Positions 1 to 4,439 of a DNA stretch of 15,659 nt are shown here, piece by piece; position 1 is the stretch's first letter; every line of letters begins with the position of its first letter. The position numbers and the translations under genes are program-made. The stretch comes from Nitrososphaeria archaeon (GTDB lineage Archaea > Thermoproteota > Nitrososphaeria > JACIWG01). The notes below the pieces were generated by a model. It saw only the letters and a program-made list of their open reading frames with translations, did not search any database and was not told the DNA's origin. Location of the stretch: the NCBI GenBank assembly GCA_050011875.1, contig JBEKIG010000028.1:1-15659 (forward strand), given 5' to 3'.

Positions 1-119
1 TTGAACTATAAATGTTGCAAACAATAAAACAAAGTATTTGTAAGACATATTTATCCCTATTGTTTATGGGTTGTTACTCGATCATTTTATTTTAATATCA
101 CTAGCGATATACTGCAAAC

Positions 120-213
120 AGCGTGAGGGTAGAATCGCTATCTACATTCAGCGTTTAAGCAAGATCGCTCCTTGCATTCGGGTGTTATTTGCCTAGGCCA
201 TCACCCAGTCTAG
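120..213 (+). ncRNA. Three tandem hairpin/pseudoknot-like units in the capsid 5' leader
   Basis: Stems GTAGA/TCTAC (129-145), GCAAG/CTTGC (159-175) and CTAGGC/GTCTAG (193-213). Loop segments CGCT, CGCT and CACCC are complementary to upstream AGCG (120), AGCG (150) and GGGTG (180). Units are linked by ATTC. Confidence 0.6.
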
Positions 214-254
214 AAAGTCTATATACTTCATGGTTCTTTATAGGAGCATTAAAA

Positions 255-2991
255 ATGCCTATAACAACTACAAGCACATTGCCAGCGCCTAAACCAAGCT
301 GAATACGGGCGCGTTAAACTAGGAATGATTACATGGAAAGTCTAAACATAAATACGAAACTCTGTTATACTGATATAGGTACGGCAGACTATTTCATTTG
401 GGAGTATTTATGCAAGATAACCAGAGGCAAACGCATACAGATTGGGCGTATATTGCAGGAATTATGGATTCTGATGGGTGTTTTATGATAACGAGACATA
501 AAAGAAAAACACAAAGAAAAAATTATCCTCATATGGTTGAGGGATGGTCTTGGACTTATATGCCCTCAGTTAAAGTAGCTATGATAAATCACGAAGCGAT
601 AGAATTTATTGTAGAAAAAACCCAAGCAGGTACGTGTAATCTTTATGGCGCTCGACCTTCGAGACCCAATTCTCATCCGATGTATGAATGGGGAATAAGA
701 AATCGCAAGCAGATAGTACCATTTATTGAAAATATAATGCCTTACTTAAAAGTTAAAAAACAACGGGCGCAATTCTTATTAGATTACTGTAAAAAAGCAC
801 AATATTTGGAAACTAATGCTGCTAAATATTATGGGTTAAGTAAGGAAGAGCTAGAATACAGGGAAAGTTCTTATCAACAGATGAAAGAACTCAATCGTAT
901 TAAAGTAGCCGCAACGACTAAGTTTCCTGGGCCCGTGAGGGCATGCGATAGTCTTATCTCATAAGAAATTATGAGAGGGAGGAATAACAAGACTCTCCGC
1001 TGCGATGCCGATAGCTAACATGATACACAAAATTCGCAGTCATCAAGTAAAAGAGTGGTGCAGCAATCATTCAGTTATAAATTGCTGTCAGTGCCAGTGC
1101 CTAAACTTATTGGGCACTTAAAATCTTCTCTGATAGACTTGGAAGCCGAAGTGGTATTTAACTAACCGGTAACAAGGGGCAAGATTATGAATAAAGATAA
1201 TAAACGCGAAAAATGCGATGGTGTAGACATGGCAACAGGGTTGAGAGATTGTTGGAATTTCTTTTGCAAAAAAGATCACACTTGGCGTTTTTACGAACTT
1301 CATAATCAGCCTGAACGTAGCAAGCGAGAAGACTCTTGCAAGAAATTTCATTGTAAGAGATGCGGTGCTCTGAACACGATTCGATAAGGTCGTGAGGGAT
1401 AAGTAGAGAAAGTCCCCGCCTAGAAATAGGTCATAAAAGTAACAGATTGAATATGATCCACAAGATCCCAGCCATGCGTAAAAACATGCCTAGGAATGGT
1501 GGTACTACGCTTAGAATGAGACGATTGAGTTTAGTCGTCTTTAAATCTTCTCTAATTGACTTAGAAGCCTGAGTCCAAGGCGATAAGGGGCAAGCGCAAG
1601 CAGCCTGAACGACTTAACGAGAAGACCGAGGAAAAATGAAAAAAAGATTGAATTATAAATGTTTTTTCGATATATTATATATGAATTCATTTTGGCTGTT
1701 CCTTACGTCCAAAGTAAATTTAAAAGATATAACTAAGCTGTCAATGCAACCCTGACGGGCCGGCGACAGCTTTTTTTATTATTCAATTTTTCCTCGGATG
1801 CGAAAGTCTGAACTCGACAAATAGGGTTGTTGAAAGTCGAGAGGGAGATCCGAAGAGGTTTCCCCGCTTAAATAATAAGAGAAGATCGTGGGTTCGATTC
1901 CCACCAAGAAAAGCAAGATTTCTTGTAGCTGAGCGGTACAGCGCCTCATGTATTTAAGTCACAAAAGTAACAGATTGATAATCCGTTAAATACAGCTATG
2001 GTGCCATTAGGGACTACAGGGGTTACGCCTCCTGCGCAGCAATTGACGGCCATAGACATCGATGCGAAAATATCATTTTATGGGACGTTTGTTCAGCTCA
2101 ATGAACAAGTTACATTACAGAACCAAGATCCCGTTTTGAACGAATGCGCCGCACGTTTGGGTGTATCACTCCGTTAATGCAGACTGAAGATCAATTGACT
2201 AGAGATATGCTGGCAGCTACAGCAGGCTTTATCAATTGTACTGGCGGAGTTAACGGTAAGTGATTATTGCCGTTAAAAAATCTCTGGTGATTGACTTGGA
2301 CCCCGAAGCTTAAGAGCCGGAAACAAGGCGGAAGGCGAGAGCCACCGTGAACGACTAAGTCCAGAGAAGCCGAAAGGCTAAGCGATAGTCTGATCTCATG
2401 CGATAAGTATGAGAGGGCGATCCGAAGAGGTTGCCCCGCCTAGAAATAGGTCATAAAAGTAACAGATTTATGGATAATCCTACAGAGATCACCTTGCAAG
2501 ACTGCGATACTGTAACTCAAACTCTTTTGACTAACAATGCTTATACCATCATGGATAACATTGAAGGTGAAAATAAGTTCGGTACAGCTCCAGTCCGTGA
2601 TGCGTATTTTGCAATGACAAGTACGAAGTTAACTTCTGACTTGAACAACGTTAATACGTTCATACAGAAGAACCAATATCCTGCTCCAATGAATGCATTG
2701 CGTTCAGAGTGGGGCGCTGTGGGTAACCTTCGTTTCCTTGTCAGCTCAATCGGCTCAGTAACGCCTGCAGCTTCTGCCAACAGTGCAGATGTGTATAACA
2801 TCTTCTGCGTCGGCATGGAGGCCTATGCGTGCGTTGAACAAGACGGATATAGCGCATCTTTCATCTACCGTCCACCTATATATGACGGCCCACTCGCGCT
2901 TAACGCTTCAGTCGGATACAAATTCGCTGAAGTTCCTCGTATTACGAACGATCTGTTTATTATTAACCTTCGTGCAACCAAGAGATTTTAA
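255..2991 (+). CDS. Major capsid protein (N4 gp56-like, HK97 fold), spliced: join(255..290,1058..1102,1450..1525,1978..2174,2180..2257,2473..2991), 316 aa
   Basis: SD AGGAG 242-246, ATG 255. Joined exons read MPITTTSTLPAP|VQQSFSYKLLSVPVP|NMIHKIPAMRKNMPRNGGTTLRMRR(Y)|NPLNTAMVPLG...NEQVTLQNQDPVLNECAARLGVSLR|QTEDQLTRDMLAATAGFINCTGGVNG|DNPTEIT...EWGAVGNLRF...RATKRF. Total 951 nt, in frame. Every junction is U|...G|. Family assignment is from recalled sequence resemblance. Confidence 0.88.
363..371 (+). promoter_or_regulatory. Possible extended -10 promoter for the intron endonuclease
   Basis: TGnTATACT about 40 nt upstream of ATG 410. No convincing -35. Confidence 0.4.
410..964 (+). CDS. Single-motif LAGLIDADG homing endonuclease (184 aa; the ORF track starts at TTG 398)
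   Basis: Motif WAYIAGIMDSDGCF and C-terminal 'IMPYLKVKKQRAQFLLDYC' typical of the family. SD GGAG 401-404 before ATG 410. Located inside intron 1. Confidence 0.88.
   Translation: MQDNQRQTHTDWAYIAGIMDSDGCFMITRHKRKTQRKNYPHMVEGWSWTYMPSVKVAMINHEAIEFIVEKTQAGTCNLYGARPSRPNSHPMYEWGIRNRKQIVPFIENIMPYLKVKKQRAQFLLDYCKKAQYLETNAAKYYGLSKEELEYRESSYQQMKELNRIKVAATTKFPGPVRACDSLIS
1103..1449 (+). ncRNA. Group I intron 2 (347 nt)
   Basis: P1 AGTGCCT(1096-1102)/GGGCACT(1112-1118) with U-G. P3 TCTTCTC(1124-1130)/GAGAAGA(1326-1332). Variant P7 G(T)AGCA(1317-1322)/TGCTC(1366-1370). P8 1333-1341/1351-1359. Terminal G1449. Confidence 0.85.
1187..1387 (+). CDS. Small Cys/His-rich putative zinc-binding protein inside intron 2 (66 aa)
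   Basis: AAGGGG upstream. Pattern CxxxHxW...CKRCG, reminiscent of DUF1660-type small phage proteins. Starts in the P6 extension (stem 1183-1191/1299-1307) and reads through the core. Confidence 0.45.
   Translation: MNKDNKREKCDGVDMATGLRDCWNFFCKKDHTWRFYELHNQPERSKREDSCKKFHCKRCGALNTIR
1636..1755 (+). CDS. Possible 39-aa peptide in the P8 loop of intron 3
   Basis: GAGG SD then ATG; MKKRLNYKCFFDILYMNSFWLFLTSKVNLKDITKLSMQP*. No recognisable homology, and the SD is sequestered in P8. Confidence 0.25.
   Translation: MKKRLNYKCFFDILYMNSFWLFLTSKVNLKDITKLSMQP
1735..1777 (+). terminator. Intrinsic-terminator-like hairpin within intron 3
   Basis: AAGCTGTC(1735-1742)/GACAGCTT(1765-1772) enclosing CCC-TGAC-GGG, with a 7-T run at 1771-1777. 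Confidence 0.45.
1876..1950 (+). ncRNA. Circularly permuted tRNA-like domain (3' half before 5' half) in the P9 region of intron 3
   Basis: Variable loop AGATC; T arm GTGGG-TTCGATT-CCCAC (1888-1904); acceptor 3' strand CAAGAAA (1905-1911); linker AGCAAGA; acceptor 5' strand TTTCTTG (1919-1925); TA; D arm GCTG-AGCGGTA-CAGC (1928-1942). No anticodon loop. Confidence 0.8.
2175..2179 (+). other. 5-nt TAATG interruption of the capsid frame (candidate micro-intron or stop-start split)
   Basis: CTC CGT|TAATG|CAG ACT. Removal restores ...VSLR-QTEDQL... It follows U and ends in G, and is bulged from a 10-bp helix with 2241-2250. Confidence 0.8.
2258..2472 (+). ncRNA. Group I intron 4 (215 nt, compact, no ORF)
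   Basis: P1 TTAACGGT(2250-2257)/GCCGTTAA(2269-2276) with U-G. P10 GATTATT(2262-2268)/GATAATC(2473-2479). P3 TCTCTGG(2281-2287)/CCAGAGA(2361-2367). P7 GACTA(2353-2357)/TAGTC(2386-2390). P8 AGCC-GAAA-GGCT. Terminal G2472. Confidence 0.92.
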
Positions 2992-3000
2992 GGAGATATC

Positions 3001-3975
3001 ATGGTTAATATATTCAATGGTTCTTTTACTTCTACTGGTTCTGCTCAGTTTCTCAATATTCGTGGCGGCCTCGATACTATCGAAGTCTGGAACATGACAG
3101 AGTTGGCTGCTGCTAATGACAGCCATGGCGTAAGCTATGCATGGAATCTTGGCATGGGCTACAATGATGCTATTGTTACAATGCGTAACGCAGCAGCAAC
3201 TGCAGTCAATGCTACGACAGCAGCAACACTTACTGTTCCAGGATTTATAGTTTACGATGCTTCTACTCAAGTCAATGGCCCAACAATAGCCACTACTGAC
3301 TTTGGTACAACTGCTCATGTCGTGCTAACTGGCAATACTACCGGCGTATCAGTCGGCAGTATTATCCGTTTGCAGGAAATGACAGGTGCAAACCAAGTTA
3401 ATGGTATGGACTATACGGTTACAGCAGTTAACCCAGGCGTCAGTATGACTCTCGGCTATACTCCTGTAACTGTTGCAGCTGCTGGTGCCGGTGCCTATTT
3501 CACGGTGCCATTCAATAAGTGGTATCCACAAACCCGTTATATTGCATCCATATCACAAGCAGCGCAAGCTGTTGTTGTGTTCACTGTAACGCATGGATAT
3601 CAAGTAGGACAAGCGATTCGCTTCCATGTCGGATCATTTAACGGCATGAAGCAGATTGATGGGTTAGAGGGCAATATTGTTGCTGTTAATACAACTACCA
3701 ACTCGGTAACTGTTGATATTAATACAACAGCATTTACAGCTTTCGTATGGCCTACTACTGCAGTAGCCGCTGCACCGTTTACTCAAGCATATGTTAACCC
3801 GATTGGCATGGATAGTTCTTTGGCGTTAGCCCAAGTACCACCTGCTGATACATTAACTGATGCTATGCAGAATATCATGACCACAGGAATTATCCTTGGT
3901 GCTGGTATTACAAGCCCTGCAGGATCTGTAAACGACGTCATCTATTGGCGCGCTACTAGTTCTTTTAACCTTTAA
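3001..3975 (+). CDS. Virion structural protein (possible capsid decoration), beta-rich FCCH-like modules
   Basis: Strong SD AAGGAG. Immediately follows the capsid gene. Ala/Thr/Val/Gly-rich, with motif 'IASISQAAQAVVVFTVTHGYQVGQAIRF...GMKQIDG'. Confidence 0.7.
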   Translation: MVNIFNGSFTSTGSAQFLNIRGGLDTIEVWNMTELAAANDSHGVSYAWNLGMGYNDAIVTMRNAAATAVNATTAATLTVPGFIVYDASTQVNGPTIATTDFGTTAHVVLTGNTTGVSVGSIIRLQEMTGANQVNGMDYTVTAVNPGVSMTLGYTPVTVAAAGAGAYFTVPFNKWYPQTRYIASISQAAQAVVVFTVTHGYQVGQAIRFHVGSFNGMKQIDGLEGNIVAVNTTTNSVTVDINTTAFTAFVWPTTAVAAAPFTQAYVNPIGMDSSLALAQVPPADTLTDAMQNIMTTGIILGAGITSPAGSVNDVIYWRATSSFNL

Positions 3976-3982
3976 GGTTTAT

Positions 3983-4004
3983 GGGGGGCATAGCCCCCCT
4001 CTTT
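3983..4004 (+). terminator. GC hairpin, possible weak terminator or processing stem after the head genes
   Basis: GGGGGC-ATA-GCCCCC followed by CTCTTT; short U tract. Confidence 0.45.
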
Positions 4005-4019
4005 AACTTAGGAGAAATC

Positions 4020-4439
4020 ATGGAAGTTGCAGCACAAACCACAGATTATACAAAGAAACCAGCTAAATCAGACAAAAAGGTCAATCTCAAGTACCAACAT
4101 GATAAAGATCGCGAACCAGTTCGTGGTATCTTCAGATTCTATGAATGTGCCGGCGCTCCACTCAGTTTTGTTTATAAGGCATATAAAGAAGATGATGTTG
4201 AACGATTTGATTTAACAGATGGTTGTATTTATACAATACCGCTAGGAGTTGCGAGACATCTTAACAAGTCTGGACGTTATCCTATACATGCATTCAAACA
4301 AGATGAAGCAGGAAATGTAAGTTCCCATATTGGCAAGAAAGTTGCTCGTTATGGGTTCCAGAGTTTGGAATTTGTTGATATCTCAGATGTAGAAGCCACT
4401 GGTTCTGACGGTATCATCGAAGTAACCGAGGCTCCATAA
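4020..4439 (+). CDS. Hypothetical phage protein (139 aa)
   Basis: SD AGGAG precedes ATG 4020; the track start at 3981 lies in the hairpin. The stop overlaps the next start (TAATG 4437-4441). Confidence 0.75.
   Translation: MEVAAQTTDYTKKPAKSDKKVNLKYQHDKDREPVRGIFRFYECAGAPLSFVYKAYKEDDVERFDLTDGCIYTIPLGVARHLNKSGRYPIHAFKQDEAGNVSSHIGKKVARYGFQSLEFVDISDVEATGSDGIIEVTEAP

Follow-up and report, generated by a model that had tools for sequence, protein, structure and literature searches.

A tRNA-shaped module in the last hairpin of a group I intron from a phage capsid gene

The window, meaning the whole 15,659-nucleotide (nt) stretch analyzed here, carries on its + strand a phage major capsid protein gene (255-2991) that is interrupted by four introns. 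Their sequences mark them as group I introns that belong to a large and apparently uncultured family. Intron 3, the third of them, holds at 1867-1958 a module that resembles a transfer RNA (tRNA) with its two halves in permuted order. On the modeled structure this module is an independently folding, YrlA-type tRNA-shaped domain located in the non-catalytic last hairpin of a mobile group I intron. The fold, a permuted tRNA of the YrlA type, is known; the context is new, as the domain recurs within putatively self-splicing phage introns.

The module and its host intron

A permuted tRNA-like domain had been proposed for this interval in a first-pass annotation of the sequence. The predicted fold and a tRNA gene finder both bear that proposal out, and the coordinates, the AGCAAGA linker and the A-GCA 3' side had all been given correctly. 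The minimum-free-energy fold of 1867-1958 is exactly a four-way junction of the stem and arms listed here, at -22.5 kcal/mol (z = -2.2). Because z is only -2.2 and 5 of 200 shuffled sequences fold as well, the energy alone is only mildly unusual, and the case for the module rests on its sequence signatures rather than on folding energy.

1867-1958, + strand: tRNA-shaped module, carried by the loop of P9.2, the last hairpin of intron 3, from the fold, the permuted ARAGORN call and the family alignment
1867-1874 with 1951-1958, + strand: outer stem of 8 base pairs (bp), the analog of the anticodon stem, from the minimum-free-energy fold
1888-1904, + strand: T arm, GTGGG-TTCGATT-CCCAC (stem 1888-1892/1900-1904, loop 1893-1899), from the fold and the Rfam YrlA alignment
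1905-1925, + strand: acceptor-like hairpin, CAAGAAA-AGCAAGA-TTTCTTG, with 7 Watson-Crick pairs, from the fold
1905-1911, 1912, 1913-1918 and 1919-1925, + strand: acceptor 3' strand, discriminator A1912, linker GCAAGA and acceptor 5' strand
1926-1927, + strand: equivalents of U8 and A9, between the acceptor and D stems
1928-1942, + strand: D arm, GCTG-AGCGGTA-CAGC (stem 1928-1931/1939-1942), from the fold and the Rfam YrlA alignment
1959-1977, + strand: conserved 3' tail TCACAAAAGTAACAGATTG, a family motif whose last base is the terminal G of intron 3

The signatures in question are those of the tRNA elbow. The D-arm side holds the equivalents of U8, A9, A14, G15, G18, G19 and A21, with G26 following the D stem, and the variable loop of 5 nt ends in C48, the partner of G15. 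The T arm supplies G53, T54, T55, C56, A58 and C61. The module sequence thus has all the positions that make tertiary contacts in tRNA.

In native order, ARAGORN reports no tRNA and no transfer-messenger RNA (tmRNA) in the window. When the module is reordered as 1919-1950 followed by 1876-1912, a check that the first-pass annotation had suggested, a tRNA is called at default settings; when 6204 other windows of 92 nt from the contig are permuted in the same way, 1 is called. The reordered sequence contains the cloverleaf arms, but ARAGORN assigns no anticodon, and the 3' side reads A-GCA.

Three other identities were considered and rejected. A functional permuted tRNA gene does not fit a sequence in which intron replaces the anticodon loop, no anticodon exists and the 3' side is A-GCA. 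For a two-piece tmRNA, position 3:70 is U1921-A1909 instead of G.U, and the Rfam tmRNA model matches the T arm only (17.4 bits). Comparison with the 42 tRNAs of G000, the metagenome-assembled genome to which the contig is assigned, reveals a generic likeness of the T arm only, and an origin from a host tRNA was set aside. The earlier suggestion that the excised intron circularizes to give a tRNA with the ribozyme as its anticodon loop was graded as not supported. Timing or blocking of splicing by the module, another suggestion made there, counts as a candidate role.

On the 5' side of the T arm lies AGAGAAGAT (1878-1886), a perfect 9-nt complement of the 5' strand of intron helix P3 (1545-1553). 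This segment duplicates the real P3 3' strand (1619-1625), and a free-energy fold of the whole intron adopts the alternative pairing. A conserved switch was rejected, as inspection by eye of three related introns (loci L080, L133 and L147, described below) found no such complement, and the complement is probably due to chance.

The domain had also been placed within a group I intron, and this assignment stands. Each of the four introns ends in G, and the U just before its first base pairs with a G in an internal guide. Intron 3 was placed by hand on the family scheme and by homology to the family alignment; the helix names, including P9.2, are labels given here by position.

291-1057, + strand: intron 1, from the exon map, with a LAGLIDADG endonuclease open reading frame (ORF) at 398-964
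1103-1449, + strand: intron 2, from the exon map, with a cysteine-rich ORF of 66 codons at 1187-1387 and CCTA-GAAA-TAGG as its last hairpin
1526-1977, + strand: intron 3, from the exon map, hand placement and homology to the family alignment, with terminal G at 1977
2258-2472, + strand: intron 4, from the exon map, with no ORF and CCTA-GAAA-TAGG as its last hairpin
1519-1525 with guide 1534-1540, + strand: intron 3 P1, AGACGAU/GUCGUCU, with U1525.G1534 at the splice site
1546-1552 with 1619-1625, + strand: intron 3 P3, hand placement
1611-1615 with 1804-1808, + strand: intron 3 P7, hand placement
1626-1637 with 1786-1797, + strand: intron 3 P8, holding an insert of about 150 nt, hand placement
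1813-1818 with 1836-1841, + strand: intron 3 P9, hand placement
1843-1865, + strand: intron 3 P9.1, hand placement

A P1 with U.G at the splice site is likewise found in the introns of L080, L133 and L147. The core was examined in an alignment of 21 ORF-less family members that includes intron 4 of the window. When folded with group I topology, 98.2% of its 777 cells pair and 25 of 37 pairs are compensated; sliding the partners by 1-3 columns lowers pairing to 40-49%. The order of elements is P3, three inner helices, the 5' strand of P7, P3', P8, P7' and three 3' hairpins, with P3 and P7 forming a pseudoknot. A motif scan locates the family tail TCAYAAAAGTAACAGATT in at least 118 IMG/VR stretches. 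Megablast of window 1-4000 and blastn of intron 4 gave no match in 50,697 GenBank phage records.

Rfam at gathering thresholds gives no match in the window. Its group I model RF00028, which has a gathering score of 50 bits, gives none at E<=10 in the window or on intron 4 alone, and scores sub-threshold values of 30.1 and 17.7 bits on the relatives in L080. This miss is read as a limit of the model, because the P1 U.G pair, the terminal G with restoration of the reading frame and the P3/P7 core are all found. Phage group I introns such as T4 td and those of Twort have a P1 U.G pair, a terminal G, a P3/P7 pseudoknot and homing-endonuclease ORFs in loops, and may occur several per gene; the window introns have these features in common with them. 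In the genome to which the contig is assigned, neither the module nor the introns were found a second time. A 1-kb contig of the same bin carries a sub-threshold group I intron match of 31.9 bits (G000:C109:220-402, minus strand).

Divergent introns and the hairpin site

The domain occupies the position at which introns 2 and 4 have the hairpin CCTA-GAAA-TAGG, as had been proposed earlier. This last hairpin before the tail is 12 nt long in introns 2 and 4, and its counterpart in intron 3 is the 92 nt of 1867-1958. Since a GAAA hairpin of that length suffices in introns 2 and 4, the module is not a conserved part of the ribozyme and the core does not need it. A short-hairpin replacement for 1867-1958 would be CCTAGAAATAGG. 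In a metagenome contig of a related intron, only 8 letters lie between 1867 and 1958; this contig is weak evidence (depth 2.5, side 27).

A search for homologous introns, also suggested by the first-pass annotation, reveals the module at the same hairpin in three lineages beyond the copies of the window phage. These are L080 and L133 (IMG/VR) and L147 (a metagenome). All three belong to introns of the same family in homologous capsid genes, interrupted at other codons.

Window, 1867-1958: insertion site RMRR/Y/NPLN
L080, 8452-8545: insertion site SASF/IYRPP
L133, 3437-3559 (L149 is the same sequence): insertion site QTED/ELTR
L147, 459-547: insertion site QDP/VLNEC

Except in the T loop, the four module sequences can hardly be aligned. 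A covariance model made from a single sequence, the window copy, nevertheless returns the modules of L080, L133 and L147 as the top match in each locus, at 43.1, 23.8 and 19.0 bits. In the four-row alignment the paired fraction is 93.9% of 115 cells (36-51% in slid controls), and both sides have changed in 23 of 29 pairs. The T-arm motif GGTTCGAWTCC and the GG of the D loop are present in all four lineages, and the acceptor-like helix keeps its 7 pair positions, with 96.3% of cells paired; in L147 it consists of 7 pairs under a GAAA loop. Sequence conservation is lacking in the D and T stems, and L133 has an extra hairpin at the position of a long variable arm. The pairing shows that the structure of the module has been kept through divergence by compensating changes. 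Permuted ARAGORN calls a tRNA in three of the four lineages (window, L147 and L080) and makes no call in shuffled-arm controls. For L133, none of 13,856 permutations is called.

The scans behind these lineages sought a T loop 38-70 nt upstream of the family tail and required both an exact T loop and an exact tail, so that they undercount. No match has a T loop 69-99 nt from the tail, and model R1 gives no match at E<=1 in the other phage contig (L157) or in L152, L153 and L154. Several candidates were discarded. The single match of the genome-contig scan (L151) lies inside a coding region and is due to chance, as is the metagenome match L146; 21 of 27 viral scan matches are not family introns, being ordinary tRNA genes or unrelated sequence with a short motif.

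The site itself was surveyed in 123 distinct family 3' regions from the pooled loci, of which 102 could be parsed. The lengths of their last hairpins are as follows.

10-19 nt: 86 of 102 introns
20-29 nt: 9 of 102 introns
30-49 nt: 3 of 102 introns
89-123 nt, the tRNA-like modules: 4 of 102 introns

Known relatives of the fold and possible functions

The only notable Rfam match of the module is YrlA (RF02553), which aligns to 1868-1960 at 35.4 bits (cut-off 69; window E = 1.2e-4, genome E = 5e-6). The alignment runs from the T arm through the closed acceptor-like hairpin to the D arm, and the middle helix of the model is deleted. At E<=1 the YrlA model also finds matches in 13 of 14 control genomes, none above the cut-off. 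The modules of L080, L133 and L147 have no YrlA match at E<5.

The likeness extends to the order of parts (stem, T arm, closed acceptor-like hairpin, D arm, stem) and to the T-loop and D-loop signatures, and the T and D arms of the window copy are near the YrlA consensus. The differences are in setting and detail. YrlA is a free small RNA, and the module is embedded in a group I intron within a messenger RNA (mRNA). YrlA has a Ro60-binding helix and a neighboring Ro60 gene, neither of which was found for the module, and its D and T stem sequences are conserved, a feature that the three other intron modules do not share. By sequence and predicted fold, the module resembles the tRNA half of YrlA and is not a member of the YrlA family.

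Permuted tRNA genes, known from a red alga and from archaea, and two-piece tmRNA genes place the 3' half before the 5' half and join the acceptor strands by a short linker; their products are functional, being tRNAs with an anticodon loop or tmRNA with a tag reading frame. The module shares the order of halves and the short linker with permuted tRNA genes and differs from them in that its anticodon loop is replaced by the intron. The algal and archaeal genes had been named earlier for comparison; the YrlA-type mimics are closer.

The YrlA structure is described as resembling circularly permuted tRNAs (10.1101/312249). An RNase P site had been among the earlier suggestions for the module, and it has a direct precedent in print: the Mycobacterium smegmatis YrlA, the sole YrlA whose acceptor stem has 7 bp, is an RNase P substrate in vitro, and in vivo it is cleaved and then CCA-tagged (PMC4201824; 10.1101/312249). 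Chen et al. 2014 treat the 7-bp stem length as a major RNase P determinant (PMC4201824). The acceptor stem of the module is likewise 7 bp.

Against this background the module is read, tentatively and with less than even confidence, as a handle for host enzymes that recognize the tRNA elbow and the 12-bp acceptor/T helix, most likely RNase P. RNase P is put first because the enzyme's determinants lie in the 12-bp acceptor/T stack and the elbow, because the length of 7 bp is kept, and because the YrlA with a 7-bp stem is cut and CCA-tagged. On the M. smegmatis precedent, RNase P would cut between A1918 and U1919. The 3' side would be trimmed back to A1912, possibly followed by CCA addition. Such a cut would fall 59 nt from the intron 3' end, leaving a nick in the excised intron or in any unspliced RNA, and might set the lifetime of an abundant ribozyme that comes from a late, highly expressed gene.

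Several points weigh against this proposal. An A precedes the predicted cut and the acceptor stem opens with a U-A pair, neither of which is a preferred context for RNase P. A cut before exon ligation could harm production of the capsid mRNA. The acceptor helix is imperfect in two lineages, with 6 clean pairs in L080 and 7 with one G.A mismatch in L133, and the outer stem of L133 is ambiguous in that the pairing in the model differs from the free-energy fold. The module alignment has only 4 rows, which were fitted to a covariance model, and all four lineages came from T-loop-targeted scans; among the matches listed, an untargeted scan for the tail motif gave only the window's own module lineage. 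No RNA run is among the 23 runs with sequence of the phage.

The strongest competing explanation is that the module is a passenger, a tRNA- or YrlA-derived piece that landed in an insertion-tolerant hairpin, folds on its own, leaves splicing undisturbed and has no function. The hairpin site is consistent with this, and the observations made there also count against a handle. The module is rare: 98 of the 102 parsed 3' regions lack it and have last hairpins of 10-47 nt, and at its position introns 2 and 4 have their GAAA hairpin. At the same hairpin, L152 (about 3922-4040, minus strand) has an unrelated, branched insert of 87 nt, with no T loop and not tRNA-like, and scans without the T-loop requirement also gave two plain hairpins of about 40 nt. 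The last hairpin is a permissive site, and not every long insert there is tRNA-like. A neutral insert is expected to decay, however, and four barely alignable versions of the module keep all four helices with 23 of 29 pairs compensated, as well as an invariant GGTTCGAWTCC, the D-loop GG and the 7-position acceptor helix. If tRNA-like pieces had been captured independently at one hairpin, that would call for an explanation of its own. A passenger is therefore regarded as rather unlikely, and as the most serious of the alternatives.

The RNase P handle can be extended to a broader proposal, which is put forward as a speculation of low probability. Mobile phage group I introns may have domesticated a tRNA-shaped tag, such that RNase P cleavage, trimming and CCA addition decide the lifetime of the intron RNA and how often it reverse-splices. 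If so, the module would be a bacterial-virus counterpart of MALAT1-mascRNA processing and a present-day instance of a tRNA-like "genomic tag" carried by a selfish RNA. As cited in 10.1101/312249, MALAT1-mascRNA and MEN-beta are tRNA-like elements in longer transcripts that act as RNase P cleavage signals. They share with the module a tRNA-like fold within a longer transcript; as described there, they are eukaryotic and unpermuted and their cleavage makes the 3' end of the upstream RNA, whereas the module is permuted and its cleavage is inferred.

A stabilizing role would have the opposite sense. A tRNA fold 19 nt from the intron 3' end might block 3'-to-5' exonucleases and so preserve the intron with its terminal G, which would favor reverse splicing. 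Module-bearing introns are found at four different sites of one gene family, and therefore have moved, and nuclease protection is one of the roles proposed for the YrlA tRNA fold by Chen et al. 2014 (PMC4201824). Family members without the module occupy many sites too, and protection and RNase P cleavage cannot both be the main effect. This role is considered improbable.

CYT-18 assists the splicing of fungal mitochondrial introns. The elbow of the module might similarly attract a protein that binds tRNA and aids folding or the second step of splicing; an aminoacyl-tRNA synthetase would be one example, a modification enzyme that also acts as a chaperone another. Across all four lineages the elbow nucleotides do not vary. 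Salmonella YrlA is modified by TruB and DusA (PMC4201824), and the authors of the YrlA structure expect an elbow-binding effector (10.1101/312249). The sister introns 2 and 4 have no such domain, and the D and T stem sequences vary among the four lineages, unlike those of YrlA; protein docking is likewise held to be a minor candidate.

That the module tethers Ro60 (Rsr) as YrlA does is very improbable, even with YrlA as its best Rfam match. A true Y RNA is unlikely, because the Ro60-binding motif GNCGAAN0-1G has no match in intron 3 (1526-1977), no TROVE (Ro60) gene was found in G000 including both phage contigs, a bin that may not be the host of the phage, or in the genomes of 3 relatives (56-82% complete), and the score of 35.4 bits, obtained with the middle helix of the model deleted, is below the cut-off of 69. 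Equally remote is a decoy for host defenses that attack or sense tRNA: tRNA-based phage counter-measures are known, but without an anticodon loop the module offers no target to anticodon nucleases, and it has no free 3' end unless it is processed first.

Group I introns carry endonuclease ORFs and, rarely, sensor domains. To our knowledge, every YrlA-type tRNA mimic described is a free small RNA with a link to Ro60. In the portion of the literature on group I introns and tRNA mimics covered here, no description of a peripheral tRNA-like domain in any group I intron was found, and YrlA was found only as a free RNA and not inside an intron. The intron modules separate the tRNA-like half of YrlA from Ro60, which suggests that the fold has a use of its own. 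Intron 3 and its natural short-hairpin sisters, introns 2 and 4, form a small and clean system for asking what a tRNA elbow does for a foreign RNA, be it processing, protection or protein recruitment.

The capsid gene and its phage

The intron boundaries follow from the five-exon layout given by P0001, an intron-less protein of 316 amino acids. A search with the last exon finds 862 longer proteins at E<=1e-5; among the 120 matches listed, their length is about 315 amino acids, several sources label them N4-gp56 family major capsid protein, and P0001 is the closest, with 97% identity over the last exon. Searching the window with P0001 by tblastn recovers all five exon pieces at 89-100% identity. 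The joined exons agree with P0001 residue for residue at all four junctions, and the reading frame is restored without the introns.

255-2991, + strand: N4-gp56-family major capsid protein gene, five exons, from tblastn of P0001
255-290, + strand: exon 1
1058-1102, + strand: exon 2
1450-1525, + strand: exon 3
1978-2257, + strand: exon 4
2473-2991, + strand: exon 5

Exon 4 contains 5 additional bases (TAATG, 2175-2179) relative to all intron-less homologs, which read SLRQTED unbroken. With this insertion the frame ends in ..GVSLR*, and an overlapping ATG starts MQTEDQL..; a U_UUG_GGU heptamer lies 17 nt upstream. The capsid protein would then be made as two pieces of about 118 and 199 amino acids, or a frameshift would be needed. 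The insertion is not an assembly error, because it is identical in six independent contigs and in all 4 runs examined. L133 and L147 are without it.

The ORF of intron 2 (1187-1387) has no Pfam or PHROG match and may encode a reduced endonuclease or a zinc-ribbon protein; an L080 intron has an ORF start at the matching position. The P8 loop of intron 3 (1636-1779) contains an ORF of 39 codons (MKKRLNYKCFFDILYMNSFWLFLTSKVNLKDITKLSMQP) with GAGG 6 nt upstream. After it come an AGCTGTC...GACAGC hairpin and a run of 7 T, terminator-like and inside the capsid gene. A simple terminator scan did not list this hairpin, whose loop is longer than the scan allows.

The window is contig C28 of G000, a genome of 2.64 Mb, and carries a phage structural block. 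Virion protein genes lie downstream of the capsid gene, and relatives of the phage have a portal gene and an endolysin-like gene upstream of it. A second contig in the bin, C25, overlaps both ends of the window and encodes a terminase, RusA and two ERF recombinases; C25 and C28 together make up one phage of about 34.5 kb, which has an endolysin-like gene of its own. The bin is archaeal, its RNase P RNA scoring 199 bits with the archaeal model versus 58 bits with the bacterial model. The gene set of the phage is, we assume, typical of bacteriophages. Either the binning is wrong or the host is unexpected, and the binning is treated as doubtful because the bin is archaeal while the phage gene set is bacteriophage-like. 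No spacer-like match was found between the phage (C25 and C28) and the rest of the bin.

The same phage is found at 99.9-100% identity, without gaps, in six independent contigs of viral or metagenome origin, and 20 DNA runs from peat or wetland (19 studies) also contain it in their contigs. In one run (X11), a low-depth contig of a related phage, with 9-11 differences per piece, joins exon 3 directly to exon 4 (window 1505-1980). This exon junction indicates that relatives free of intron 3 share the same habitat.

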